Shown: piece after piece, positions 3,396 to 61,894 of the stretch
How positions within the stretch are numbered: the stretch's first letter is position 1
Layout of the letters: each line of letters begins with the position of its first letter
NCBI GenBank assembly: GCA_051294375.1
Contig: CM119264.1
Coordinates: 20,858,438 to 20,922,437 of the forward strand
Length of the DNA stretch: 64,000 nucleotides
Reading direction: 5' to 3'
Source: Paraspadella gotoi
Taxonomy: Eukaryota > Animalia > Chaetognatha
Program-made: the position numbers and the translations under genes
The notes under the pieces: generated by a model
Seen by the model: the letters and a program-made list of their open reading frames with translations, nothing else
The model's database searches: none
What the model was told of the DNA's origin: nothing

Positions 3396-4190
3396 AAAAT
3401 AATAAAATCGTTGTTCAAAACTAAAATCAAACTTTCTCTAGAAAAAAAACATTGTGACATTCTGCATCAAGACCGGACACGCGGACACCGCGGGACCCAG
3501 AGAAAAGCTAATCGAAGATCAAAGAAAAGTGACGACGAGTCCCTTTTAGTCTTGACCACCTAGTCTGCCGATCGAACCCCCCGCCCAAAACACCGTCAGC
3601 CGCGGTCGCCAACGGCCACGCCCTTCGACCCCACCTCCCGGGCGAACCCTCCTCTTCCCTCACCCACTTCCGTGTCGGCAACATAGTCGCGGCTCTGAAT
3701 CACCACTCAAGTCTTAAAACGCAACTGCAGGTGGCTCCCGTTTCAACCTTTTTTTTCAGTTGTTTTTCTTTCTTTCTTCGGGAAGGAAAGTTTTTTCTCG
3801 TTAACCGACGAGAAAACTTGGGCTAAGTTTTCGTTTGGTTTGTTGTGGTCGGGCGTTGTTGTTGTTGTTGTTCTTGTTCTCGCGGTTTTGTCGTTTCGCT
3901 CGTCGTTGGGACGGACGAGAATGTCCGCTCCACCTGAGTTAAAAAGGAATTGTTGCTCAGTGCTTACTTCTTATTCAACCTATGGCAAATAGTAATCAAC
4001 AAATATTACTCTATTGAATGACGAAAATGTCTCTCGTAGACTTCACAATCTTAACTAAATATAAAAATCGGTAGTAAAATCATATGATATCATATGATTT
4101 TACCATACCATACCATACCATACCATACCATTTTACCATACCATACCTAGTGCAAGGTATGGTGGACAAAAATCCACCAACCGTTCATCA

Positions 4191-4263
4191 GCGGCCATTG
4201 GTACTGGGGGCAAGTCATTTGCCTCCAAACCCAAAAGTCCGTGGTTCTAGCCCGGTGGTCGCC
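4191..4263 (+). other. tRNA-derived module in LTR (Gly-like anticodon loop), not a functional tRNA
   Basis: 73 nt; acceptor-like stem GCGGCCA/TGGTCGC; T-arm-like CCGGG-GTTCTAG-CCCGG (perfect in the 3' LTR); loop CTCCCAA in other copies. Confidence 0.6.
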
Positions 4264-4264
4264 T

Positions 4265-4340
4265 AGCAGTTAAAAGGGACGGGGCGCTTAACCCGCCTGA
4301 AACATGGTGTTACAGCCTGATCCGAAGCTCAGGGACTGCT
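4265..4340 (+). ncRNA. Twister ribozyme, P5-type permutation, predicted cleavage U4289/A4290
   Basis: P5 AGCAGTT/GACTGCT; GA+CGG pairing with L4 CCG (T1); TAA-CCC-GCC; P3 TGWAAC/GTTACA; P4 CCTGA/TCAGG closing loop TCCGAAGC (T2 GC/GC). Confidence 0.85.
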
Positions 4341-5159
4341 TATATTGAGCGGTTCTGTCACTAACACATAATAATAATCACTGTCTCTTCATTGGTGAGC
4401 CCGACTTCCGAACACAACAGCAACAACAACACCTTCAGGCGACATGCCTCAATCTGGTGATGCACTTTCCGCCAACAACACATCAGGCAACATGCCTCAA
4501 CTTGGTGACGAACTTTTCACCAACAACAACAATACACTGAAGAGACGCAACAGACTTCTCCCTACGGGAGGGGGATGTATGGGGGACTAAAATCCACCAA
4601 CCGTCATCAGCCGCCATTGTGCCGGAGGCAAGTCATATGCCTCCCAACCAAAGGTCCGGGGTTCTAGCCCGGTGGTCGCCTAGCAGTTAAGAGGGATGGG
4701 GCACTTAACCCGCCTGTAAGAGCTCAGTGACTGCTTATATTGAACGGTTCTGTCACTAACACATAATAATAATCACTGTGTCTTCAAAGGCAAGGAAAAT
4801 AAAATGTATCGATGCGCCGTGGCGATCGATTTTCCTTATCTCGTTCCTAATCTTCCCTCCACTCCGAAAATTCTTAACCCTGTACTTCTTTTTCCATTAT
4901 AAGTTATATTTCTTCTTTTCCAGGAACCCTTCCTCAGCTGATTTTCTAAGTTTCTAAATACTAACCTGTAAACCTATATACTCTTTTTAACTCACCCCCT
5001 CATTCTACCTCGCGTGTCCCATTCCCGGCTCCGCAACTCCACACTCCTCCTCCCAACATTTTTATTGATGATCGTTGCCTTTTTGTTTTCCCTTCGGTTT
5101 TCATTTCCGTTGCTTCACCGACGAAAGTGATGTCAGCCACCTCCGCCGGCTGCGCTGTA

Positions 5160-5683: not shown

Positions 5684-7280
5684 TAGGGCGTTGAAAAATA
5701 ACGAAATATTACAAATCAAGTGAGGTAAATAGCTATTTTAGTGTAATAAAGTCTGTAGAATTCGATGATGATAACCATTTTTTTTGTATAGTCTCATCTT
5801 CTTTGTCGGGAATGGCGATTTTTGTAGCACATAAGGTGCTATTAAAATGGAGCAAACATTGTAGAGTATAAAAAACTCAAATATTAAGATTTTATAAAAG
5901 CCATATTTATAAGGCGTAGTAAAATTTCTAAATTTAACTTTACTTAAAATTCTAAATTTGAGGAACGAACAACATTATATTAATGAACATTTATGTAATC
6001 AAAAAATTATAATAAATTTTACAATTTACGCAGTAGGCCATATTTATACTAGTACTAAACCAATAAATGTTAAAATTTCAAAACAGTTTTTTAAAGATTT
6101 TTTTGCAGATTTGGATTCGTCATAAAAAGTTGATAAAAAGAAATATAACTCTTTTGAAAAATTCCTTCATTAAGTGGGTCAAAAATTAGAAAAAGCTATA
6201 TTTTAAGCTGAAAATTAACTTTTTATATATTAAATATAGTTTTTTTAATTTTTAACCCACTAATGAAATAATTTTTTAAAATGATTTATATTTTCTTTTA
6301 TCAACTTTTGACGAAGAATTCAAATCTGCAATCAAAATTAAGAAAAGCCTACTTTGAAAATTTTTGATTTTATAAGGATAGTACTATATATAAATATAGC
6401 CTACTGCGAAAATTAAAAAACATAAAATTAATTTTTTTTACAAATTAATGTTCACTGATGGTATGTTGTTCATAATTGACTTTTAGAATTTTCGTAGGTA
6501 ACTTTCACTACGCCTTAATATTTAACATACATAATATAAAAAAAAGACCCATATAAATATTTTGATAAGTTTATTTACAAATTTTATATTTTAATAATAG
6601 TTTGTTAGCTATATTTATTAATAAATAATAATAAAAAATAAGCTAAAGTGAAAAAATAAAAAATTTTAAATTTTAAAACCGGATTTAAATTCCTTACAAA
6701 AGTTTATATAAGAAACGTATAATCCATTTTAAAAAAATCTTTCATTAAGTAAATTAAAAATAATAAAAACTATTATTTTTGTTTATTTTTCAATTTTTGG
6801 CTTAAAATTATAGTTTTTCTGAATTTTGACCAACTTAACGACATAATTTTGATATAAAAATTATATTTTCTTATATTAACTTTTTGCAAAGAATGCAAAT
6901 CCATGAAAAAATTTTTAAATTATTATTTTTTAACTTTAACCTAATTTTTACTCATAATTATAAAGAAATATAGTTAACTAACTTTTTATAAAACATAAAA
7001 TTTAGAAATAAACTTACCAAAATATTTTTATATATATATATTTTTATATTTCAAAAGCTCATATAAATTTTATAAAATTTTAATAATTTGATTTATCATA
7101 ACTTATAATGGTTTTGCTATTTTATAACAATTTTATATAAATTAAAAACCGTCATTTCCGACAAGAAAGATAAAATTATACAAAAAAATGGTCATCACCA
7201 TCGAATTCTAGACTACATTACACTAAAATACCTATGTACCTTACTTGATTTGTTATATTTTGTTATTTTTCAACGCTCTA
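5684..7280. mobile_element. hAT-like non-autonomous DNA transposon (family M1) with a nested M2 element
   Basis: Long imperfect TIRs TAGGGCGTTGAAAAATAAC.../...GTTATTTTTCAACGCTCTA, 8-bp TSD ACGTATAT; uninterrupted copy at 48833-49842. Confidence 0.9.
5910..6517. mobile_element. MITE family M2 (TIR TAAGGCGTAGT), nested in M1
   Basis: TIRs TAAGGCGTAGT/ACTACGCCTTA, flanking duplication ATATTTA; empty site visible in the 48833-49842 copy. Confidence 0.9.
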
Positions 7281-10768: not shown

Positions 10769-12053
10769 TCACAAAAGATCCAACTCATCGAAGAGCTTCT
10801 TGGTGGATTCGACCCTTCGATCCTTTTCGCTCTCCACCCTCGTCCTCCACTCCTCCCTCTTCCTCTGCCTCTCCATCCTCCTCCTCCTCACCTCCTCCGC
10901 CCTCTCTCGATTCTTCCTCGACGCCGCCGCCCGCCGTTCCAGGTTCTCCTCACGTCGGGTTTCGGCGGCGGAAAGTCGAGCGTCGGAGGCGGCGGCTGTC
11001 GCCGCAGCAGACGCGGAGGCGGCGGTTCCCAAGACGACGCCGCGTCGAGTCGGCGGCGCGCCTTTCAGCGGCGGAAGGCGAGAGAGCGGCGAGGATTTGG
11101 CGCTGGGAGATTTACCGGCGTCGCGTGCGTCGGACGTGGTGAGGATGTAACTCTGCCCACCGGAAGTGAAGGAGATATCGTGAGCGACGGTGAGCTTCGT
11201 CTCCGGCGTTGGATCTGTCATCTGTTGGGCTGACGACGACGACGATGATTCGGACGTCGTCTTTGCTGACAGACCAGTCGTCGTCTTTTCTTGCTCTTCC
11301 TTTGTCAGCTCCTTTTGTCGGTTCGTGCTCTTCGTCTTGTCACCGTCGCCGCCGTCGTCATCGTCGTTCTCATCTTCGTTGTAGACTTCGAGGTCTTCGA
11401 ACTCGAGATCTCCATTGATGATTTTCTCGTTGGCAGCAGCGGCGACAGGAGCTGGAGAGGCCGCAGGGGCTGTAGATGGCGCAGCATTTACAGACACAAC
11501 CGCCGATGGCGGAGCAGCCAGCCGATTCTCCATTTGAACGGCCTCGACACATGGCGCCACTCGGATGACGCCCGTAGAAGCGGCGCCACCGCTGACCACG
11601 ATGCGTCCGACGCCGCCGCGTTCTTTTTTGACAGCGTCACGGCGCGATCTGTGGACGGAATCCTGGAAATTGGCGTCCGCGAGTTTTTGGGAAATCTCCT
11701 CGCTGAGAACGCTTTCCTAAAATGGAGGAACATGGGCAAAGACAGAAATATTAACAATAACTAAGTTTACGAATAATTAACAATAATTAACTTACCACAG
11801 GAGTTTGAGCGTCGCTTCTTTTTAAACCGATGGTGGAAGTTAAATTTCCTGTCTGCAGCAAAAACCAAATACAGAAAAGGACAGATAGATATAAAGATTT
11901 GATAAATAAAATAGATCGATAGAAACTGACCCACGAGTCCGCGCTTTCCATCTCGTCACCGATTACTATCCCCGATTCCCTTTTGTTCCTTTTCTTCCCA
12001 TTCACCGCAACGACCTCTGTCCTGGACACTTTCTTTGATCGAGCCGCTCCCAT
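10769..12053 (-). CDS. Stathmin-domain protein (STMND1-like), about 375 aa, 3 exons: 12053-11931, 11852-11796, 11716-10769
   Basis: Phase-0 GT-AG introns join three open frames; MGAARSK start (possible N-myristoylation); SGGQSYIL resembles stathmin SGQAFEL; C-terminal coil LSAAETRREENLERR...RAEEVRRRR matches the stathmin helix motifs. Confidence 0.75.
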
Positions 12054-12947
12054 TTCGTCGCCGGAATAAAAAACGTCTTTACGAACGCATGACTATTGTC
12101 TGAGCTAAATTAATCTACGGTCAACCGAAGGCGAGCGTAAAATTTTTTTTCTTCTTTTTTTTAATCTTTTGTGCGAAATCGTTTTAATACTATACGAGGA
12201 GCTAGTTCGGCTAGACAGTAAACGCGATGTTTGAAAGAAAAACTTCTCTTTAATAAGGTTGCTGTTTTGGGGTCTTTCTATTTATTATTTTATAAGGAAT
12301 TGAGAACATGTAAAACATTTATCAGAAAGAATAAAGCATTAGAAACATTCTTGAAATATTTATTTGAAACCTGTCGCTATAAAAAATTGACCATACGAAA
12401 AAAGGTACATAAAGAAAAGACACATACATTTTTTCTATATAAATTTTATGATAATTGATTTTGCTTTGAGTTCGTAATGCGCGAAACAGGATAAGGAGCA
12501 AATTCGAGCATTTTAATCAGAAATAAAAGGAAATTCGTCACTAGAAATTCATGGCTATATTAATATGGGTATCAAAATAAAGTCCGTTATACTTATAAAT
12601 TTATTCAGGAATATTGAATCTTAAAACTAAGGTAGTTATATTTCTGAACCTCATAACTTTGAATGGTCCCCAAGAAGATATTTGTTATGCTACAGAATCG
12701 GAAAACATATTATGAAATTGGTACAACCAATATAAAAATTATCCATTATATTATACAGTTTTTTAAGAGCTTTCAGGTTATATCAATATTATTGCTATTT
12801 TTTTTTAAATCGTCTTGAAAGAGAGGTGTAGTCGGGCATTGCCTAGGTTCTCCGCGCCTAGAAGTTGTGACCCGTTGGCTCATTGAGTAAAGCCATCAGC
12901 TCATGACCTCTAGGTACCGGATTCAATCCCAACCCGGTACCTACCCT

Positions 12948-13027
12948 GCGGGAAGCGTGAGGACGGCCGTAAGCCGCCTTTGGGGCATGGAAAACCCTCA
13001 AGCCTGGTTCCAAGCCCAGGGACCTGT
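12948..13027 (+). ncRNA. Twister ribozyme, P5-type, predicted cleavage U12970/A12971
   Basis: P5 GCGGG/CCTGT; GA+GGA pairing with L4 TCC (T1); CGGCCG; TAA-GCC-GCC; P3 TTGGGG/CCTCAA; P4 CCTGG/CCAGG closing loop TTCCAAGC. Confidence 0.8.
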
Positions 13028-13275
13028 TCCATGGCTGCAAGAGGGGGTTATAGAAGTTACGGACAGTCATCTTCAGCCCACATAGCGCCTTATCCACACT
13101 GGTGAGCCCATCCTGTTGAGCGTATTCCAACCTTCTGATTCCAGGCCCTTGGTCTAGCTGAAGATTGCTCCCCTCCCTCCACTGGAAGCAGTGCAGGGTG
13201 GGTTACAATTTGGAGGGCATGTAGTCGGGCATTGCCCAGGTTCACCCCGCCTAGAAGCATGGCGCCTTTAGTTGT

Positions 13276-13348
13276 GACCCGGTGGCTCATTGAGTGAAGC
13301 CATCAGCTCATGACCACTAGGTACCGGATTCAATCCCAACCCGGTTCC
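13276..13348 (+). other. tRNA-derived module in LTR (Met-like CAT loop); second copy at 12869-12941
   Basis: 73 nt; A-box-like TGGCTCATTGAG, loop CTCATGA, B-box-like GGATTCAATCCC, partly pairing ends GACCCGG/CCGGTTC. Confidence 0.6.
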
Positions 13349-13354
13349 TACCCT

Positions 13355-13434
13355 GCGGGAAGCGTGAGGACGGCCGTAAGCCGCCTTGGGGGCATGGCAA
13401 ACCCTCAAGCCTGGTTCCAAGTCCAGGGACCCGT
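13355..13434 (+). ncRNA. Twister ribozyme, P5-type, 3' LTR copy, predicted cleavage U13377/A13378
   Basis: Same fold as 12948-13027; P5 GCGGG/CCCGT; L4 TTCCAAGT turns one T2 pair into G-U. Confidence 0.7.
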
Positions 13435-14130
13435 TCCATGGCTGCTAGAGGGGGTTATAGAAGTTACGGACAGTCCACGTAGCGCCTTATCCACAGAGGC
13501 AAAATTTTTTTCATTCAAAAATATTAAGTTATCGAGCTTAAAAACCTCTCACCGTTTAAGTAAAAGTAAACTAAAGGACATGATATCTATACATAAAAAT
13601 TTGTATGTTTTGTCTTTAACGATCTGTTTTTAAAATGTTAAAATCTCTTTGTTTTCGTTTGCGAAATATTTTTTAGCGGCGAGTTTCAAATGGTCACATA
13701 GTAACTTTTAAAAAAATTATCGTTTTTCTATTTATTAACGTTTAAACAATAACATATCTGTAACATATCCATTTGAGCCCTTTAACGAAAAATAGTTTCG
13801 GTGACATTCTCCAAGACTGCCAATACAATTGCGGGACCACCTACCCTCTCCTCTTTCATCGTCGAGGAAAAAAGGAAAACCTCGGTGACCTTATATATCC
13901 AGGGGCCTCATCTACGGTCCTCATAAAACGTGGCCATAATTTGAGGAAATGGCTCCTTTTTCGCCTTCGATCTCCCGCAGGCGGCACCATAAACAAACCC
14001 AAACGCGACTTTTTTCCACCTCGTCGAGATTCGCCGTCTGGGCACAACCACTTTTTCTTCATCATTCCCCGTCTTTCTCTCTTCCTTTCTTTTATTCTTT
14101 TTTTCTTTGTTTTATTCTTTTTTATTTTTT

Positions 14131-22329: not shown

Positions 22330-23050
22330 TAAGGCGTAGTAAAATTTCTAAATTTAACTTTAATTAAAATTCTAAAAGTGAAGAACGAACAATATTATAT
22401 TAATGAACATTTATATAATAAAAATATTTATAATAAATTTTACAATTTACACAGTAGGCCATATTTATACTAGTATTAAACCAATAAATGTTAAAATTTC
22501 AAAACAGTATTTTCTAAGATTTTTTTGCAGATTTGGTTTTGTCATAAAAAGTTGACAGAAAGAAATATAACTCTTTTTGAAAAATTCCTTCATTAAGTAG
22601 GTCAAAAATTAAAAAAAGCTATATTTTAAGCTGAAAATTAATTTTTTATATATTAAATATAGTTAATAGTTTGATTTGGTCTTTTCATGCCAATAATATA
22701 AAAGGAAAACAAATTATTTCTGGAAGTAACATAATATTTATTTTTAAATAACAAATAAATATTAAATATAGTTTTTTTAATTTTTAACCCACTTAATGAA
22801 AGAATTTTTAAAAATGATTTATATTTTCTTCTATCAACTTTTGACGAGGAATTCAAATCTGCAATCAAAATTAAGAAAAGCCTATTTTGAAATTTTTCGA
22901 TTTTATAAGGATAGTACTATATATAAATATAGCTTACTGCGAAAATTAAAAAACATAGAATTAATTTTTTTTACAAATTAATATTCACTGATAGTATATT
23001 GTTCATAATTGACTTTTAGAATTTTCGTATGTAACTTTCACTACGCCTTA
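22330..23050. mobile_element. MITE family M2
   Basis: TIRs TAAGGCGTAGT/ACTACGCCTTA, 8-bp TSD ATGCTCAT. Confidence 0.92.
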
Positions 23051-23424
23051 ATGCTCATGATAGATTATCTTAACGTTGTATACATTAGCATTTAAATTTC
23101 ATCGGCTCTGGCTACTTAGAGTGAAGAGGTCGCCCAAGGTCATCGATGACATCAAAGTTCATGGCTGAGGCTCTGACTCGGTTTACGTTGTCGATCCGAG
23201 TTTTTTCGCTAAAAAAATTGAAACTACCACAGACGCGAGTTCAGCGGCCAAAGGCTTTCACCACTCCTCTCGCTCCCCTGTAATGAACCAGAAGGAGCGG
23301 ACTGCTCCTCCTCATCCTAACCACTCCTTCGAAATGGCACCCAACGCTCGGCCTCGTGGCGTCGATGGACCGAAACGGAAAAAGTCGAGGAATTTTTCAA
23401 TCATTAACGAATTCGAGTGAAGCG

Positions 23425-31100: not shown

Positions 31101-33934
31101 ACTTGAATATTGTTTACTTATATTACCTTCATAATTAACTCTAATTGACCAAAATTTCTTTAAAAAATATGTTCGAATGTTTTTTCAGGAAAATAGATAA
31201 TTGGCTAGAACATTTTTGGCGTCTTCCCTCACATATTCCTCAATATTTAAAAATTTATTTAGGGGATTTAATAACAGGGTTTTAACCTAATTAATTCTGA
31301 ATTCATAGGCACTGTGATAGGGTCCATATGCAGAAAGGGCAGCAGTTATGACAAATCAAATGGATGTCTGACTTCTTAAAATCTACAATTCACTTGGTCT
31401 GAAGGATTTTCTACAAAGGATATTACCCCTTATATCCATGTCCATGTTCCATACACCATACTGTTATTGTGTGTTTAAATCTAAATTAAGTGGAGAGTTG
31501 TTTGAAGCGCCAAAATGATAGCATTAAAAAAACACACCTCCGTCGAACAACATCATAAAGATCAAAGCAAACACTAAAAATGGGAAAAGACGTGGATCAA
31601 AAAATGAGGCCCCAGACAATTCAAGAGAGTAAAAAAAAAATTGTTAAAAAAGAGGAAAAAAAGCCTAGCATACTTTATCAGAAAGGGAAAAAAAAAACTG
31701 AAAATGGCAATAATGAGGAAGAAGTTTATCACATAAAATCTTGTTTATGAAAGTCCTTAGTACATCTTGACTCACAAAATTTAATATTTGAAAAGACTGG
31801 CACCCCGACCTCAAATTAAGCAATAGAATCAAAACTTGAAAATCAGCTTATGGTGCTCGTTGGGAAAGGAAAATTTCGATTATCACTACGGTTAGTTAAA
31901 AATATCTGCCAATTTTTTAACTATCAATAAAAATTGAGGGTCATTGTTTAAAAAATAGAGCAGGTACTATAATACAAATCTGTCAACATGCCTGTCAATT
32001 GCTTGACAATGTTACAAAATTTTGACTACTTTACCAAAGCGTGCCTTTGCTATAAGCTTTTAATATTTTTGCGTTGATATAATTCTTTTTAAAACATTAT
32101 GTTGTTGCCCTGTAAAAAAAAAATGGTTTTACTATTTCTTCGATGAAATGTCATTATTACGAAAATGTCAATTTGACAAGGAAAAACAAATGGATTTAAA
32201 AAAAAGGTAAAGATTTAAAGCCCCTTTAAATTAGTATAAATTTCAATTTTAAATTAGCGACTTAATGTCATGATTTCTGAGATTCTTTGAAAAAAAAATA
32301 AAATTACAAAAAGCCAATAAAAAACTTAGTTTATGCTTTTCTTATTAAAAATTTGAACTATGTTTGATGAAACGTTGATTTACCAAAAAAATTACCATTA
32401 CTGATTACTGATTTTACAGTAAAAATTATCATTTTTTTTAAAGATATAAAAGCTCCTCTTTGAAGTGTTGCAGTTTGGTTAAAACATTGGGCAATTTTGG
32501 GCTGCAACCACTTGGTATTTTCATTACACGCAAACCGAAAGACTTTATAATAAATTTTGCGCTTCTCATTGTTTAATCAGGTTGGATTTGGTGCCCGCCG
32601 CCCACGGTTTTCTCTTCGGCCGCTCTAATGATGCAGCGTTTTGCCAGATCTTCTGGCGGCAGTAATCTCCTGCCGGCTTCGGTTTACTTTTGTTATTTGA
32701 CATTTAAATAGTTTAAAATATATTTTTTTCCTTTACAATTTGATTTCTTTTTCCACTTAAGTGAATCATATTACTTATTCCGAGTTGTGGCTAAAGAATT
32801 ATGATAAAAATGCTAATAATTCTATAATTATTTTTTTTGCCAATTACCATAGGAAAATAAAGTTAACTATCAGGCATAGCCTACCTTACAAAGACGTCCA
32901 TTTATAATCATTTGTATGCTCGTTTTAGGAGAAAGGCCCAATTTAAGCAGGCTAAAGCCAAAAGCGATGAACCATTTATATCTATGTGCATTGTAAATAA
33001 TCTTTGAAACATTATGCGACTCCCTTGAGGGAAGCCAGGTACTCTGGAGTGTATAAACGAGACTGTGCAGAAGAAGTCTTCCATTAAAGCTTGGAGAACT
33101 GCTATTTATCTTGTAAGGCCTTAAAACACCAAAGCCTATCAAGAGTCATGGGCAAAAGATAGCTTAATATTAAATTAATGGGATAATTTATTATTGGCTG
33201 TACCCAAGTTTCATATTCACATTTAAAAAAAAAAGTATTTTCTTCATCCTAAAATTATAATGAAATAATAAGATCGAAAACTTTAACAAAAAAGGAAATA
33301 GATTTTTAAAAAAATTCTTTAATTTTTTTTTTTATTCGATCGGAATCTCGGTAACGAATTAAACTTCGTAAGCAAAATATCATTTGTTTATTAGCCAATT
33401 TTAAAAACGTACGATGTTTTGTTCGAGATGAAAAAATATTGATTATTAATTAGAAAATGATGCAGAGGATTTCAATTAATCCGTAGTTTAGCCAACTTTG
33501 TCTTAGAGTTAAAATTTAATCATTTTGTTGGTAATATTCTAACAATATTGAAAAAAGTGTTTTTTTTTGCTAAATACCTCGATAAAAAATCACTGCCAAG
33601 AGAAGAAAGAGCTCAAAAATGAGCTGCCCCCCCCCCGGGCGGACAAAGGTGGGACGCTGACGATGTGATCGGGTCATTGGCTTGTCATAGACTGAGATGA
33701 TATTCGTGTAGAGTGGGATATCATGGGTCAGGTAAAGACCCGCCTGGAAAATACCAAGTGCCACTCTAATATCTCTTTGGCCTGATAAGCCTGATGAAGC
33801 CCTCCTCTCACCTGACGGTGAGGTGGTCGGTTGCCTGTTCTTGCCTGTTTCGGTGCAGGAGATTCTCTCTCTCTTTCACTTTTCACCATTTCAAAATTAT
33901 CTTCTCCTTCATCTGGCCACTGTCCTTTACTCAG

Positions 33935-34015
<81 letters not shown>

Positions 34016-34049
34016 ACTTAATGTGTAGAGCATTTTGTTAATGTTTTTC

Positions 34050-34094
34050 ATAGCTGATGAAGACTCTAACCAACAGATTCGAAATATGTACTCT
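34050..34094 (+). ncRNA. Minimal type I hammerhead motif, slightly degenerate; duplicated at 39009-39053
   Basis: CTGATGA-A-GACTC..GATTC-GAAATATG-TA. Confidence 0.65.
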
Positions 34095-37000
34095 TAATAA
34101 TAAAAAAATCGTTGTATTGGCACATTAATAAACCTTTCTTAATATTCACTTAGCAACGAAAATAGAGAAAATATACAATGTCTACATATAATCTATAACT
34201 TTTTTGCAAATGAAAAAATCTGAAAATTAAAATTGTTACTTTTTATCATCCAATGTTTAAAGAAAGATATAACGTCAGCAAAAGGTAGCGCTTCAAAAAA
34301 AAGCTGTAACATTTAACGAAATATTTTTTGCCGAAATTGTTTTCAAACGCGAAAGGTTGACCACAAATGTGGCCGCTCTCTCCCTCTAATCTGCCGGGCA
34401 TAAATGAAACGTAAAAGCATTTACGCGCCAATCGGCCAATCAGTCGCCACCATCGCCAACTCTGACGCACAAACTTAAGCGCCAGCGCCACTACCAACAC
34501 CGACGCCGCGACCGCAATGGAAGGCGACTGCAGACAGAAGGAGATAAACAAGAAAATCACGAGCAACGCGGAGAAGATAAGGTCAAATGAGTTGAGGAAG
34601 AAGGGAAAGTGGGGGGATGGGAGGAGGAGGAATGAGAGGGAGGAGAGGGTATTGCGCGCCAGTTTTAAAACGGCAGGAGAGGCGTGCCTCGGGACCCTTG
34701 AAAGCCAAGCTCCTCCAATCCCTCACAATTCCATTAAAACTTGACAAGACTACATTTGTATAATTTTTGTGGTTTTTTTTTAAAATATAAGTGTTATTTT
34801 ATGTATCTCCTATTCTGTATTTTTTTATCTGTTTTACTTAGGTAGGTAGGTAGGTAGGTAGGTAGGTCGGTTGATATTTGCGCCGTTTTTTTACACAACC
34901 TCGCCAAAACGATACATGAAAAATATTTAACTTTCCTCAGAAATTTTTAAACATCATTAAGAAACATATGAATCGTGATGAGAAGATTTTCTGAAAAAAA
35001 TTGGTCCGTACGAGAAATAAAGGTCACTGATTATTTACGGGATTGTTCTTTTTTTTTTTTTTGCTCTTTTGAGAGAAACTCGAGATGTCAGGAGATTATA
35101 GAAAAAAAAAAGAAAAGATTTAGGATCAAATGGTAAATTTTTTTAAAACCATTCTGACTTCCATCGTTAAGGAATGAGTTACGCTTATTGATATTGATGA
35201 TTAATGATCTACAAGCCGGCAGTCCACCCTATTGAAAATTCAATAATTTCCAAAGTGAATTGTTGAATAAAACTAAAGTTTTAAATTAAAAAATGTTACA
35301 TTTGAGTATACCAAAATATTATCTTAAACAACAATTACCACAATTTTTAAAGAATGAAGATAAAAATCCATTTTAATTATAATATAAAATTATTCTATCA
35401 TATACTTTGCAAAAACTATTGTCAGCGACGCTAAACTAAAAAAGTCAATAAAATTATTTCCACATTTTCATTGAACTTCAAGAAAACAATTTTCGTGTTT
35501 ATGCCTTGTCACTTGATACAGAACATCCTGATAAACTAAACCACTCTTCATCAAGTCGTCTTAGGTTTTCCGACCTTTTTATTTCCATTCGAAATTTAAT
35601 TTAAGATCTGCACGATATCCCATCCTAAGGTTTTATAATTTCTCTCTCTCCATCAAATTCCAACACGTTGCGTAGATCGACCGGCTCATATTTGCTTGTA
35701 AGCGAAATATGTTCCTGAAAATAAGTAAAAAAAAGAACGGAAGAAAACAAGTTCAACTCGTAAATCAAAAAGAGAAGTCCCTAATTCGGAACAAATTCCG
35801 AGAACTAATCGCAGAGGTAATAAAAAAGGTACAAAAGGAAGTGGAATGATTATATCCTGATTTATATTATTATTTTGATTATTTGTCGGATCGTTACCAA
35901 GATCGATCGAGGTGGGATAAACTTACCCGAACTGAGATCGCCTGGAATAATTATTCTCGAAATCTCGAGGATTAAAGTGACAGTCTTCGACAAAATTTGA
36001 GCATGCGCAAAAAAAAGAATTACAACTACAACGACAAGGTCTACTACAAAACGACAACTGAGAAAAAGAAAAACAACTTACGGATTCTACAAAGTAAGTT
36101 TGGACGAATAATTTTCCAGGTCAAATCTGCGTCACAACGTAACCTGACGAAAATTTAAACCCGACCTTAAAAAAAAACTTGAATGACTGGTGCCCCGCCT
36201 TACGAAATCGCCTAAACTCAAGCGAAAAAAACTTTTTCAATTTCTTTTTTTATTTTTAAGATTTATTTTCTAAAAATTGTGCCATAATTACGTTATGTTC
36301 TGATTTGTACAAACAAATTTTTATTTTATATATAACTTCATGAACTCATTTTCTTTTCGATACTTTTATTTTTGAAAAACTGGATTCGAAGTGTTTTTTT
36401 CCTTTCCTTTTCGGTATTGTTGTCGTTGCTCGTCTTCGTCCTCGGGGTCTTTGTCCTCTTGGTTGTTTTCATTCGCCTTATGGTGTCGTGATTATTATGT
36501 TATAATTATAAACTATGATTTATATATTAGATATCAGTGTTTTCTAAATTAATATGAAATTAATGTTTTCTAGTTGAAAATTAATTTTTACAACCGTTTG
36601 TGTGAACGGACGAACGGTACGACGAGCATTATTTAAAAAAAAACATATTCTAAGTCAATTCTTTCGACTATTTTTTTTTATTTTTAAATAAAATACCTTC
36701 AATAAAGTGTAGATAATTATCAGTAAACTGTAAATCAATTACTTTATTCTTTTCCAGACCAAACGTTAATTATTGTAAATAAAAAATGCTATACTAACAA
36801 ACTTTGGTAATCTTACCAATAAAAATGATGTAAATAACTGTCTTTGTTCTTGCACTTTGTCGTTTCTTTATTATTTACCGTCTGGTCGCGGCCAACGAAA
36901 TTCTTGCATCACAGTGACTTCAAAGTGCAAACCCTCGTTGAGTCTCTGTAAGTATTGGGTTTATCTGCCCTGGAGTCTCTGTTAACAATTTTTTTTCTTT

Positions 37001-38924
37001 TTTTTTCAGAGTTTGCGACAGCAAAACCAATGTTATTTAGACCAACGGGACGAATTCTTCTGCCCTGCAAATGGTATGAAATAAATTTGTTTCCAAAATT
37101 AAAATTTGAAACTCGAATAAACACTGTTTTAACTTTATAAATTAAGACATAATTTGTATATATATCGAATTTTATAATTGTTCCGGCATTTTACGTATCT
37201 TTCACGATAAATTTCCTACTTAATACAACATATTGAATCACAAGAAATGCGTCGTAAAAGAAACGGTGTGTGAAATACCGGGATGGAACCATATATCCGA
37301 AGAAAAAAAATCATTACTATAAAACTGTTAATAATTTCTTGAAATGTGAATAAATATTCAAGTTGTTCTCTTTCTTAACTTTTAGCCAATATATCGTTTG
37401 TTTTCAAATACTTTGATGCTCTGTTTTCTCCACGCGGTTTGGAAGAAAAAATGTTTGTCTAGTCTCATTCTAAAACATACCAGATAAAATTATTTATGAA
37501 AGGTTGAAAAAATTAGACGGTAATAAGTCAGGTTCGGGTAAATTTTCTAAAAATTTTGTTTTACTTACCTTAAATAAATTAAAATATGTTTATTTGGATG
37601 CTTATAAAAATTTGAAGATTAAACGCACATTATAATTATCATAAGTAGGCTTAACTCCTATGTAATACAAAGCGACTAAATATTTTTTAGTTGGTTTAAA
37701 TTTTTTTCTTTTAAAACACTGGCAATGAAAGTAAAAGGCCAGAAACATCTTTTACACGATTTTATAGTGTATGTTAAACAATCCATAACACTACTATTAA
37801 GTTGCCGGTATAAGGTCCTGCTTTTTTCCCAAAAAAAAATTTTAAAAAATTTCGTTTTTTACGTGTTCCCCAGCGGACGTAATCAAGAAAAGACCGACGT
37901 GTCCGTCAAGCCTTGAAGAAATGCTTCGACGCAACCACACTGCCCTGCTGGTGGATGACGCGGACAGGCTGCTCAACTTCACTTCGACAGGTGGACGCGT
38001 CAGGAGAGTTGTCCCAACGGGCTACGACGACAAAATAGGGCTCCCAGTATGACGTGGGCGAGAAAGAGAATAATTTTTTATTAGTTCTGTTGCTCCAGCA
38101 TTATTCAATATCTTCCATATATTACAAATATTCATTATCGTTTATTCATTCATTATTCATCATTCATCATTCACATTCATCATTCATTCATTCATTCATA
38201 CATATCCCATAATCGCAGTGAAGAAATCATGGAGAATCTTTATACATTATATTACTGTTTGTCACTGTAGCGTATGCAGGACAGAAGAAAATCCTTTGCC
38301 TCTATGCTAGTCTGACTCTGCTTACAGCTAGACCCGACTCTATAATTCACTTTTGTCGGTCCGGTCGTCCTGCCTCCCTCATATATGTACACAACTTATA
38401 TCATGCTCAGAACATCGATAATTATTCGAAAATTATGATAAAAAAAAAAGATATGTTCTCTATATATACACATATGTATAAACAGATAAAGGAGTCCGTC
38501 CGTCCGTCCGTCCGTCCGTCCGTCCGTATCCGTCCGTCTCGCGCTCGCCCCTGTCGTCCGTCCGTCCGTCGCGATCGCCGTTCGCCCACGACTTAGCCAA
38601 AACCACATAACTCGTAGTGTTTTAATTATGAATTGGGAATGGATATTGAAATGTGTGGGTAGAAAGGTGGTATTGAGCTGGTATATGATTTTGATGAATC
38701 TCGTGAGTGGAAAATGAAAAATGACAAAAATTAAAAAATAATTCACTATGCAACGACCAATTACTCAAGGAGGGATGGGTTGATGACTGAAAATCTCTCT
38801 CTCCCNNNNNNNNNNNNNNNNNNNNNNNNNTCTCTCTCTTTCACTTTTCACCATTTCAAAATTATCTTCTCCTTCATCTGGCCACTGTCCTTTACTCAGC
38901 CCTCTCTCTCTCTCTCTCTCTCTC

Positions 38925-38973
<49 letters not shown>

Positions 38974-41793
38974 ACTTAATGTGTAGAGCATTTTGTTAAT
39001 GTTTTTTCATAGCTGATGAAGACTCTAACCAACAGATTCGAAATATGTACTCTTAATAATAAAAAAATCGTTGTATTGGCACATTAATAAACCTTTCTTA
39101 ATATTCACTTAGCAACGAAAATAGAGAAAATAATACAATGTCTACATATAATCTATAACTTTTTTGCAAATGAAAAAATCTGAAAATTAAAATTGTTACT
39201 TTTTATCATCCAATGTTTAAAGAAAGATATAACGTCAGCAAAAGGTAGCGCTTCAAAAAAAAGCTGTAACATTTAACGAAATATTTTTTGCCGAAATTGT
39301 TTTCAAACCGCGAAAGGTTGACCACAAATGTGGCCGCTCTCTCCCTCTAATCTGCCGGGCATAAATGAAACGTAGAAAGCATTTACGCCGCCAATCGGCC
39401 AAATCAGTCGCCACCATCGCCAACTCTGACGCACAAACTAAGCGCCAGCGCCACTACCAACACCGACGCCGCGACCGCAATGGAAGGCGACTGCAGACAG
39501 AAGGAGATAAACAAGAAAATCACGAGCAACGCGGAGAAGATAAGGTCAAATGAGTTGAGGAAGAGAGGGAAAGTGGGGGGATGGGGAGGAGGAGGAAATG
39601 AGAGGGAGGAGAGGGTATTGCGCGCCAGTTTAAAACGGCAGGAGAGGCGTGCCTCGGGACCCCTTGAAAGCCAAGCTCCTCCAATCCCTCACAATTCCCA
39701 TTAAAACTTGACAAGACTACATTTGTATAATTTTTGTGGTTTTTTTTTAAATATAAGTGTTATTTTATGTATCTCCTATTCTGTATTTTTTTATCTGTTT
39801 TACTTAGGTAGGTAGGTAGGTAGGTAGGTAGGTCGGTTGATATTTGCGCCGTTTTTTTACACAACCTCGCCAAAACGATACATGAAAAATATTTAACTTT
39901 CCTCAGAAATTTTTAAACATCATTAAGAAACATATGAATCGTGATGAAGAAGATTTTCCTGAAAAAAATTGGTCCGTACGAGAAATAAAGGTCACTGATT
40001 ATTTACGGGATTGTTCTTTTTTTTTTTTTTGCTCTTTTGAGAGAAACTCGAGATGTCAGGAGATTATAGAAAAAAAAAAGAAAAGATTTAGGATCAAATG
40101 GTAAATTTTTTTAAAACCTTTCTGACTTCCATCGTTAAGGAATGAGTTACGCTTATTGATATTGATGATTAATGATCTACAAGCCGGCAGTCCCATTGAA
40201 AATTCAATAATTTCCAAAGTGAATTGTTGAATAAAACTAAAGTTTTAAATTAAAAAAATGTTACATTTGAGTATACCAAAATATTATCTTAAACAACAAT
40301 TACCACAATTTTTTAAAGAATGAAGATAAAAATCCATTTTAATTATAATATAAAATTATTCTATCATATACTTTGCAAAAACTATTGTCAGCGACGCTAA
40401 ACTAAAATAGTCAATAAAATTATTTCCACATTTCATTGAACTTCAAGAAAACAATTTTCGTGTTTATGCCTTGTCACTTGATACAGAACATCCTGATAAA
40501 CTAAACCACTCTTCATCAAGTCGTCTTAGGTTTTCCGACCTTTTTATTTCCATTCGAAAATTTAATTTAAGATCTGCACGATATCCCCATCCTAAGGTTT
40601 TATAAATTTCTCTCTCTCCATCAAATTCCAACACGTTGCGTAGATCGACCGGCTCATGTTTGCTTGTAAGCGAAATATGTTCCTGAAAATAAGAATTAAA
40701 AAAAAAGAACGGAAGAAAACAAGTTCAACTCGTAAATCAAAAAAGAGAAGTCCCTAATTCGGAACAAATTCCGAGAACTAATCGCAGAGGTAATAAAAAA
40801 GGTACAAAAGGAAGTGGAATGATTATATCCTGATTTATATTATTATTTTGATTATTTGTCGGATCGTTACCAAGATCGATCGAGGTGGGATAAACTTACC
40901 CGAACTGAGATCGCCTGGAATAATTATTCTCGAAATCTCGAGGATTAAAGTGACAGTCTTCGACAAAATTTAATGCGCAAAAAAAAAGAATTACAACTAC
41001 AACGACAAGGTCTACTACAAAACGACAACTGAGAAAAAGAACAACAACTTACGGATTCTACAAAGTAAGTTTGACGAATAATTTTCCAGTCAAAATCTGC
41101 GTCACAACGTAACCTGACGAAAATTTAAAACCCGACCTTAAAAAAAACTTGAATGACTGGTGCCGCCTTACGAAATCGCCTAAACTCAAGCGAAAAAACT
41201 TTTTCAATTCTTTTTTTATTTTTAAGATTTATTTTGCTAAAAATTGTGCCATAATTACGTTTATGTTCTGATTTGTACAAACAAATTTTTATTTTATATA
41301 TAACTTCATGAACTCATTTTCTTTTCGATACTTTTATTTTTGAAAAACTGGATTCGAAGTGTTTTTTTCCTTTCCTTTTCGGTTATTGTTGTCGTTGTGC
41401 TCGTCTTCGTCCTCGGGGTCTTTGTCCTCTTGGTTGTTTTCATCGCCTTATGTGTCGTGATTATTATGGTTATAATTATAACTATGATTTATATTATTAG
41501 ATATCAGTGTTTTCTAAATTAATATGAAATTAAGTTTTCTAGTTGAAAATTAATTTTTACAACCGTTTGTGTGAACGAGGCAACGAGTACGACGAGCATT
41601 ATTTAAAAAAAAACTATTCCTAAGTCAATTTCTTTCGACTATTTTTTTTTATTTTTAAATAAAATACCTTCAATAAAGTGTAGATAATTATCAGTAAACT
41701 GTAAATCAATTACTTTATTCTTTTCCAGACAAACGTTAATTATTGTAAATAAAAAATGCTAACTAACAAACTTTGGTAATCTTACCAATAAAA

Positions 41794-59370
<17,577 letters not shown>

Positions 59371-61894
59371 GTCAGACAACTTTTTCTTTTTTTTTTCTCA
59401 TTCTGTTTTGTCGGTTTTTAGAGTCGAATGAAGTCTTTCTTTCTTTTTCCTAGGTTTTTATCTCGCCAGACAGACCAAACCCGTCTTAGCGAGATAAAGC
59501 GAAAGCAAGGCTTCTTTGTGTCGTCGCTATTGTGTTATCATGGCTATTTAAAGTGTGATATCATAGGGAGTTAAAAATTTTGATATGGCTTCTAATCATT
59601 AAGATCTTTGAAATTGTCATTTTTCATATCAATAATCGTATTTGTTTATGTTTTATTTACAAAACAAAAACGTTTTAGATTATTGATATGAAAAATGACA
59701 ATTTCAAAGATCTTAATGATTAAAAGCCATATCAAAAATTTTAACTCCCTATGATATCACACTTTAAATAGCCATGATAACACAATAGCGACGACACAAA
59801 GAAGCCTTGCTTTCGCTTTATCTCGCTAAGACGGGTTTGGTCTGTCTGGCGAGATAAAAACCTAGGAAAAGAAAGAAAGACTTCATTCGACTCTAAAAAC
59901 CGACAAAACAGAATGAGAAAAAAAAAGAAAAAGTTGTCTGACCGCGTGACATTGCAATCTCTTTTTATCGAAACACTTGGCGGGACGATCTTGACATTCA
60001 GAGAATTTGACGCCTTCTTTCAACTGATACGCGAAGTCACAGTTGAAGTCGTCGACTTCGATTTTGACATCGAGATCCGGGGGAAGGCAATATCTGAACA
60101 TCGTGATATTGACCAACTTGGCCCCTGAGGAAATAAAAATAAGTTGGAGTATAAGAGATACCACAGTTACTTTTTTCCAGACTCTTTTTCGCTTTATTAG
60201 TATTGGCACAACTAAAAAAAGAGCCTTAATATGTTTTTTTGGTTCAGCTCACCGGTCTGGGAGTGTTAAGCTTGCAACTGAAAGCGGCGTTTAGTCGAAG
60301 ATTCTCAAAGTTGTACTGTATAGACTGCATGCTCTCGGTCTCGTTGGTTTCTGGGAGCCCTGGACTCTCCGTGTCGTCTTGAAAGTCCGCGTTCAATCCT
60401 AAGTGATACAGTACCGGTCTTGGCTTTCCTTCATAAGTCCAGGGAAGCTATATCTTCTATAATAATGAATGGAATGACTTGATATGCATGTGTGGGATGG
60501 AACTCCGTATGGTCTATTCCCCATTCTATATTTCAAAAAAAATTTTTGAAGTTTTGTTTTGAGCATCATTTTTAAACAAAATTTAATTTGCATACTGTGC
60601 TCAAAATACTTGAACGATATAATTTTTTTTCTCAGTAAAAATTAATCTAACATTACTTGGTCTAATGGTAAAGTGTTAGGCTGAAAAACAATAATTATTT
60701 ATTAATTTATGCATAGTTGCTAATTATAATAATTAGCTTATTATTTATTTTTATTTATTACTTCAACTTTTTATTATAGAAATTAATAGTTGATTGATAG
60801 GCAATTTTATTCCTGTAATCAAATTATAATTTGTTTTATTATTAACTAAATAGTGTTTTTATTATATTACTACACAAATATGATTTTTTGTTAAATAATA
60901 TTTTTTTAAAAAAATTATGCCAAACTATTGGTGAAATGTCACTGATTACAAATATATAAATTTTTTTAAATTTGGATAATCCCTTAACGAAATACAGTCC
61001 CAAAAAGCCCTAAAAATGGTTAAAAACACCTATTTTTTAAACCTTTCTAAAAACTGCAATAATGCGAATTTTCAACTCAAACTTTGTAAGGTATATAAAA
61101 TTGGTAGTATTTTATTGCCTGAAAAAATTAGAGATGTAGTAATAATTTTATCTAACTATACAGATTAAATAGGGAGACGTACTAAGAAATTCAGGTAATT
61201 TTAAATTTTGCTGAGGTCGTCTAATTTTTCTCGATATTTTATCGTCACTTTCCCTTTTTCTTTCCCCCTTTCTTTTTTCTCCTTTTTTTGCCCTTTGCTT
61301 TTGCCTTTTCCTTTTTTTTGCCCTTTCATGCAATAATATATATTACATTTAGCTAAAAATAAATAATCCCTCTTATTTTACTTTTTCTCTCTTTTTCTTT
61401 CCCTCTTTAAAATTAACAAAGAAGCAAATGAAATAAAACGATGAATGAAAAAATGAATAAAAAACCAAATAAAAAATTATTTTAAAAAATTTAAAAATTA
61501 ATAATAGAAGGAACGAATCTTAAAAAAGACATATAAAAAGAATAATGATGATATACTTTTTTAATTAAACTGAAAAATATATTTATTAATCAATAAATAT
61601 TTTGATCAATCGATAAATCAACCAGTCTATCAATAAATTAAAATTCATATTTATATTATGGTCAATGACAATTGGTCATAGTTTATGAAAGACTAACACA
61701 GAAAACAAGCTTTAAGAACTAACAACTACAAAATAATGGGGAATAGAAGAAGTAGAGAAAGAAAAAGAGAAAGCAAAAGAGAGAAAAAGAAAACAAAATA
61801 TAGAATTAGAATTTGATGGTATCCTTTCGTTTCGTTGTGTTATGAGATTAGCAAAAATATTTGTTTTGTTACAACAATTTTATTTGACATAAAG

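Follow-up and report, generated by a model that had tools for sequence, protein, structure and literature searches.

Twister ribozymes are common in eukaryote genomes, and we know of almost no function that has been assigned to them. Self-cleaving motifs placed in both LTRs of a retroelement are described for the plant LTR retrozymes (Cervera, Urbina, de la Pena 2016; PMC4918200; here and below, PMC numbers refer to excerpts of the papers concerned), non-coding elements with a unit between the two cuts, a 4-bp target duplication, a primer-binding site (PBS), a purine tract and a GC content above 55%. The family B element analysed here is like them in all of these features, self-cleavage being predicted in its case. 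The plant elements carry a type III hammerhead and a tRNA-Met PBS and measure 600-1000 nt, whereas the family B element carries a twister fold and a PBS that is not of the tRNA-Met type, with a length of 669 bp and a predicted 407-nt unit. A circular-RNA cycle has been proposed for the plant retrozymes (PMC4918200, PMC7761336), and RtcB-type ligation is described in PMC7229834. Retrozyme circles are highly paired, whereas the family B unit is no more stable than its shuffles and its circle is only predicted. The family B element likely works like a retrozyme; having no hammerhead, it is not one in the strict sense. Reviews describe the animal retrozymes without LTR, PBS or purine tract, and the excerpts of PMC7761336 allude to insect elements with a type III hammerhead that have not been published.

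The Helenus TRIMs/TRIMp3 (Kojima 2024; PMC10886601) share with family B a length below 1 kb, the 4-bp duplication (in animal Helenus), a tRNA-like LTR head and a PBS matching a tRNA 3' end, whereas the boxes of family B are far more decayed and its LTRs hold a twister. A motif search of the supplement excerpts of that paper gave no sequence match to family B. Two wasp entries in its DataS1, Helenus-2_SyJa-LTR and Helenus-2_SyUm-LTR, combine a Trp PBS with an apparent type III hammerhead, recognised by eye, right after the tRNA head, and the excerpted text of PMC10886601 makes no mention of a ribozyme in Helenus. Both entries would be animal LTR retrozymes already present in Repbase. In metazoan repeats and Penelope-like elements, hammerheads with a helix III of only 1-2 bp and a palindromic loop act as dimers (PMC4209133, PMC7229834). 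Family B is like these in having the corresponding helix cut to 1-2 pairs, a palindromic loop and a possible shared helix; the double-hammerhead repeats belong to another ribozyme class and have no LTR, PBS or purine tract, and dimer action in family B is only predicted. The twister variants of Schistosoma Perere-3 (PMC8501958), with a non-standard P1, likewise lie in an animal retrotransposon, but Perere-3 is an autonomous non-LTR element with one P1-type motif at its 5' end and a P1 completed by the target site, in contrast to the two P5-type motifs inside the LTRs of family B.

One link between twisters and retroelements was found in the literature, and it concerns a non-LTR element. No report of a twister in LTRs or of a natural twister dimer was found in the open full-text literature, including the excerpts of PMC6765202, PMC13725137, PMC10085705 and PMC8501958, a body of text in which subscription journals are largely not represented.

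Anatomy of the family B element and its relatives

In the window (the whole stretch of DNA analysed, 64,000 nucleotides), positions 12827-13495 comprise a 669-base non-coding LTR element flanked on both sides by the target duplication GAGG. The initial annotation had placed an LTR element with a 4-bp duplication here, and its boundaries, the GAGG pair, the PBS and the purine tract were all located (Table 1). The two LTRs are 95% identical (249/262 aligned bases match, K2P 0.051) and differ by two indels, one of 14 and one of 10 nt. Two LTRs, a PBS, a purine tract, a short duplication, a length below 1 kb and the absence of coding sequence place the element among the TRIMs. No Pfam family was found in its scanned frames, and no RT, integrase or gag was detected in the window among the frames scanned (149/369 of those with at least 45 aa and 100/259 of the shorter ones). 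Family B is represented within the 64-kb window by one full element and one diverged solo LTR.

Table 1. Features of the family B element and of related elements in the window.
Feature	Positions	Strand	Details
Left target-site duplication	12823..12826	+	GAGG
5' LTR (LTR1)	12827..13098	+	TG...CA, 272 nt
Decayed tRNA-like head, LTR1	12869..12940	+	A-box-like 12876, B-box-like 12920, 44 nt apart; possible Pol III promoter, weak
P5-type twister fold 1	12948..13027	+	predicted cut 12970/12971
Fold 1, stems	P5 12948-52/13023-27; P2 12955-58/12973-75; P3 12978-13002; P4 13003-07/13016-20		
Fold 1, core	GA 12959-60; T1 12961-63/13009-11; T2 12976-77/13014-15		
Self-complementary 6-nt linker replacing stem P1	12964..12969	+	CGGCCG
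Predicted unit RNA	12971..13377	+	407 nt, between the two predicted cuts; inferred
Internal part	13099..13219	+	121 nt, non-coding, short purine tract at its end (13219)
Primer-binding site	13100..13109	+	TGGTGAGCCC; likely tRNA-Trp type; one spacer base after LTR1; 9/10 to Trp PBS (PMC10886601 Fig. S2)
3' LTR (LTR2)	13220..13495	+	TG...CA, 276 nt
Second tRNA-like head, LTR2	13276..13347	+	6/7 acceptor pairs, other stems poor
P5-type twister fold 2	13355..13434	+	linker 13371-13376; G.U wobble in T2; predicted cut 13377/13378
Right target-site duplication	13496..13499	+	GAGG
Family A element 1 (A1)	4158..4786	+	order tRNA-like head, twister, PBS; duplication AAGG; predicted unit 417 nt
Family A element 2	46919..47560	-	duplication AAGT; predicted unit 415 nt
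Solo LTR, B type, diverged	56519..56784	+	78% identical to LTR2; twister damaged; linker CGAUCU

Two elements of a second family, A, lie in the same window. As had been claimed, the families share little sequence, the best match between them being 23 nt over P4/L4 with a score of 26 (9/300 shuffles score as high), and the length of the target duplication is 4 bp in both (AAGG and AAGT in A, GAGG in B). The LTRs of family A start with TAT and those of family B with TGT. Although inserted at different target sites, the two A elements share differences between their 5' and 3' LTRs at two or three positions of the twister, in the P2 strand, the linker centre and a P4 base (4275-4335, 4690-4735, 47385-47455, 46970-47040), which could reflect parallel change, conversion or template mixing. 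When the solo LTR serves as outgroup and gap events are recounted by hand, 9/11 differences between the two B LTRs lie outside the 407-nt unit, among them both deletions; a bias of this kind is absent in family A.

The window as a whole is AT-rich and microsatellite-rich. At 45252-45434 and 47670-47840 the + strand carries exon-like segments of EGF (E 5.7e-5) and WSC (E 1.7e-4) type, which fall under the cut-off of Pfam and suggest an invertebrate animal as the host; a protein search gave no relatives. Family A element 2 lies between the two segments in the opposite orientation, probably within an intron. A tandem duplication of ~5 kb with 92% identity occupies 33866-38794 and 38831-43842, and a 1.5-kb nest of near-perfect inverted repeats (arms of 287, 163 and 210 nt), foldback- or MITE-like, occupies 58905-60408. 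Copies of an AT-rich dispersed repeat family, some of which have inverted ends, lie in either orientation at 6050-6540, 22350-23070, 49200-49640, 53900-54540 and 55640-56200. At 10769-11716 (-) there is a GC-rich, low-complexity open frame of 315 codons with coding-like composition and no Pfam match.

The twister fold and its conservation

The catalytic G and A are present in both B folds (12959-60 and 13366-67), as is the U/A cut site followed by A (12970-72 and 13377-79); the roles of the general base G, the A and the cut site are taken from PMC6154101. The T2 GC and L4 are in place, T1 consists of 3 bp and T2 of 2 bp, P2 has 3 bp with one bulged base, and P3 is long, with 8 bp. The initial annotation had called both twisters nearly intact, which holds for the core, the pseudoknots and P2-P5 in both LTRs, with a U.C mismatch in P3 at 12981 as the flaw of LTR1 and a G.U wobble in T2 at 13422 as that of LTR2; it does not hold for P1, which is essentially absent. 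According to PMC11662667, twisters tolerate P2 bulges, loss or defects of P1 and a G.U in the 2-bp pseudoknot, and the supplement of that paper, with ~2600 tested twisters, may include related motifs. The pairings named earlier, T1 UCC/GGA versus CCG/CGG and P4 CCUGG/CCAGG versus CCUGA/UCAGG as well as P3 and P5, are all present in the sequence, and the predicted cuts at 12970/12971 and 13377/13378 are indeed 407 nt apart. The single-base bulge in P2 was recovered in family B, whereas the GAGG strand given for family A occurs there only in the two 3' LTRs. The twister fold in both B LTRs is thus confirmed as a sequence observation, and ribozyme activity is predicted from it. Compared with the type-P5 twister (RF02684), the strand order, GA, UAA, conserved GC, L4, T1, T2, P2 and P4 are the same, and family B differs in its 6-nt palindrome in place of P1, its bulged 3-bp P2, its long P3 and a U-A pair replacing the consensus C-G in T1.

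Twister-P5 is the top Rfam family for both B LTRs (17.1 and 16.8 bits, E 0.6-0.75) and accounts for the two best of three matches in a search of 721 bases with E allowed up to 10; the alignments cover GA, UAA, GC and L4. These scores are below half of the gathering cut-off of 37.6 bits because P1 is missing and P3 is long. No hammerhead match was obtained in the element at E up to 10. Over the whole window, Rfam gave no match at gathering thresholds, and the 15 matches of an E-value scan include no ribozyme; Twister-P5 did not match family A. An HDV-like topology drawn by eye from downstream helices was discarded, having no Rfam support. A structure descriptor consisting of P2 (one bulge allowed), T1, T2 and P4, composed after the motif had been seen, matches exactly two sites in the 64 kb, namely the two B LTRs, against a background of 6 matches in 40 shuffled windows (0.15 per window) and 2 single matches in 3000 shuffled elements. 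None of the four family A LTRs, each of which is damaged, passes the descriptor. Sequence-pattern matches elsewhere (2 viral, 103 metagenome, 85 prokaryote) include none that pairs fully (0/190), and around 4 exact 17-base matches in viral contigs the remainder of the motif is absent. The predicted folds of the isolated B motifs differ from the twister except for P5 or P4, and their z-scores are not significant.

The comparisons draw on the seven LTR copies of the window. Covariation was assessed over 24 pairs in six of them from three lineages, the seventh copy, which has no P3/P4, being left out. In these six copies 83.9% of 137 cells are paired, compared with 71.8% in shuffles, and two-sided changes occur in 10/24 pairs, a number equalled in 2/500 shuffles; these figures are not probabilities, given that the structure was read from one row, the alignment of P3 between families is arbitrary and the lineages are few. 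The two-sided changes comprise all 3 pairs of T1, 2 pairs of P4, 1 of P2, 2 of P3 and 2 of the linker. A covariance model built from the six copies found one more, the deleted 3' LTR of A1, and nothing further below E 0.7. The earlier claim of a fold conserved across divergent families is supported by the two-sided changes in T1, P2 and P4 together with the different P3 and P5, within the scope of six copies and three lineages. Such changes are what selection on the twister fold would leave.

tRNA-like heads, primer and the proposed cycle

The tRNA-like heads upstream of the twisters were scored as matches to 23 tRNA loop invariants and compared with shuffles. The LTR1 head of family B matches 19/23 invariants (1/200 shuffles as high; 2/200 for the box pair) and that of LTR2 18/23 (15/200), and with stems counted family B is weaker, with 16/150 and 4/150 shuffles as high for LTR1 and LTR2, respectively. 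In family A, 3/4 LTRs score 20-21/23 (0/200 shuffles each), and the heads of the remaining A LTR and of the solo LTR, at 16/23, are at background; 75 positions of the window reach 18/23. Rfam called no tRNA on any head and ARAGORN none on the LTR1 head of family B; the A1 heads are found by ARAGORN only at a relaxed threshold that yields 31 calls in the window. Its tRNA-Tyr call at 13341-13438 overlies twister stems and is an artefact. A tRNA-like head directly upstream of the twister is therefore a good assignment in family A and a weak one in family B, where it leans partly on position. A T4 run is absent from family B, as it is from 34% of shuffles, and family A contains internal T4-T5 runs. 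A sigma-70 scan was near chance and is irrelevant to this host. Neither these heads nor the palindromic P1 remnant and the solo LTR were mentioned in the initial annotation.

The PBS had been described as common to both families, and an identical 10-nt PBS is found in all three elements. It matches the tRNA-Trp PBS of PMC10886601 at 9/10 positions, and at 12/13 in A1. The further proposal of shared partners divides accordingly: a primer tRNA common to families A and B is likely from the identical, Trp-like PBS, and a common autonomous partner is no more than plausible, for the scanned frames of the window yielded no RT or integrase remnant and the 5' ends of the LTRs differ between the families. 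Self-priming was rejected, no complement of the PBS being seen by eye at the tRNA-like end or the cut end of the element.

The LTRs, duplication, PBS, purine tract, twister core and covariation form the established part of the description. On these grounds we consider the locus to be a short non-coding LTR retroelement with a twister fold in each LTR, and probably a twister version of the LTR retrozyme, with a 407-nt unit, circularisation and a Gypsy-type helper. Transcription, possibly by Pol III from the tRNA-like head, would begin upstream of the twister, and a transcript running across both LTRs would be cut at the two predicted sites to release the unit. RtcB or another host ligase could then join the 5'-OH and the cyclic phosphate that cleavage at U/A would leave. 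Lacking terminal redundancy, the 407-nt unit would have to become a circle before it could be copied into two LTRs; a tRNA, likely tRNA-Trp, would prime reverse transcription round this circle, so that both LTRs are rebuilt without such redundancy, and a helper element of Gypsy type would copy the circle back into DNA. The unit is 65% paired in prediction, with a stability close to that of shuffles (z -0.20 as a linear molecule, +0.15 as a circle). In the fold predicted for the circle, P2/P3 are paired over by the downstream strand, GAGGGGGUU included, which may represent an off-state.

Linker pairing and alternative readings

The only six bases between T1 and the cut site are CGGCCG in family B, GGCGCU in both A 5' LTRs and CGAUCU in the solo LTR. 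As a P1 hairpin the linker would form one pair and is not stable (+4.1 to +5.8 kcal/mol), whereas duplexes between two copies reach -10.7 (B), -8.3 (A 5') and -4.6 kcal/mol (solo). The outer pair is C-G or G.U, the second is G-C in 6/6 copies, and the centre is G-C, C-G or A-U depending on the lineage. Because the two central bases are adjacent in one strand, the centre can pair only between copies; it is complementary in 5/7 copies and broken in both family A 3' LTRs. Fully self-complementary 6-mers have a background of 30/664 in the element and 7/190 among the pattern matches. Canonical type-P5 twisters above the Rfam cut-off were seen in a metagenome contig (L071, 394-451 and 697-801 (-)) and in L077 (635-739); the two in L071, ~300 nt apart with a short ORF between them, have long ordinary P1 hairpins and score 57.6 and 50.3 bits.

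A palindromic linker that can pair only between copies suggests a domain-swapped double twister, as in the double hammerhead. In the modelled swapped form, which is nested and has a shared P1 of 6 bp, the energy lies 5.7 and 8.1 kcal/mol (two ranges) below that of two monomers; with pseudoknots unscored, folding without constraints reaches energies 24-27 kcal/mol lower than the swapped form. If the motif is active, we lean slightly towards both motifs acting as one domain-swapped double twister whose linkers pair into the shared P1. Cutting would then be favoured in transcripts with two LTRs and damped in a one-copy circle.

Each LTR might instead be a P1-less 'mini' P5 twister that cuts alone, the palindrome being just a stump, left when an ancestral P1 lost its apical part. 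Twisters can do without P1 in vitro (PMC5408937; see also PMC11662667), the B linker resembles the basal P1 pairs of canonical P5 twisters, and the centre is broken in 2/7 copies. A stump, however, does not explain why the centre pair remains complementary in three identities, its adjacent bases are unable to pair within one strand, and the swapped form is of lower energy, so that we regard a monomer acting alone as possible but doubtful. It is also conceivable, though in our judgement unlikely, that the element is an ordinary TRIM, perhaps of Helenus type, with normal strand transfer, and that the captured twister is now inactive or irrelevant to its cycle. The damage seen in every family A copy and in the solo LTR, the low Rfam score, the folds with the downstream strand that bury the cut site and the unremarkable stability of the unit all fit such an element. 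They are set against two families with almost no common sequence that have the same fold at the corresponding position and show two-sided changes in T1, P2 and P4; moreover, damage to single genomic copies is expected after insertion.

The initial annotation had named a P1-type twister using the downstream GAGGGGGTT of the same LTR as an alternative, in which GA followed by GGG could form T1 with one G.U. This pairing fails on both P2 and P1: the P2 strand finds no partner in the bases 5' of that GA, and there is no P1 stem. The stretch is conserved neither in the solo LTR nor in family A, and it pairs better with P2/P3 as an off-state, which leaves the P1-type reading barely credible. That the likeness to a twister arose by chance in GC-rich LTR sequence would agree with the Rfam E-values, the fold z-scores and a descriptor composed with the motif in view, but just 2/3000 element shuffles gave a hit, one in each, and the independent family A repeats the fold in different sequence, making coincidence very improbable.

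Beyond the preferred reading of a twister version of the LTR retrozyme, we tentatively propose, as a speculation that may well not hold, a lineage of animal LTR retrozymes that are driven by Pol III and have an obligate domain-swapped double twister, which would cut only when both LTRs are present and whose circle would resist re-cutting; together with the hammerhead-bearing wasp Helenus it would form a wider class of LTR elements combining a tRNA head with an interchangeable ribozyme. The case accounts for the way in which scans at Rfam thresholds miss such motifs. The LTR retrozymes would come to include a further ribozyme class and probably animal hosts, and a twister that is dimeric in nature, convergent with double-hammerhead control, is predicted by the palindromic P1. 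A twister fixed at the same place of the LTR in two divergent families would have a testable function, the release and circularisation of a transposition intermediate.
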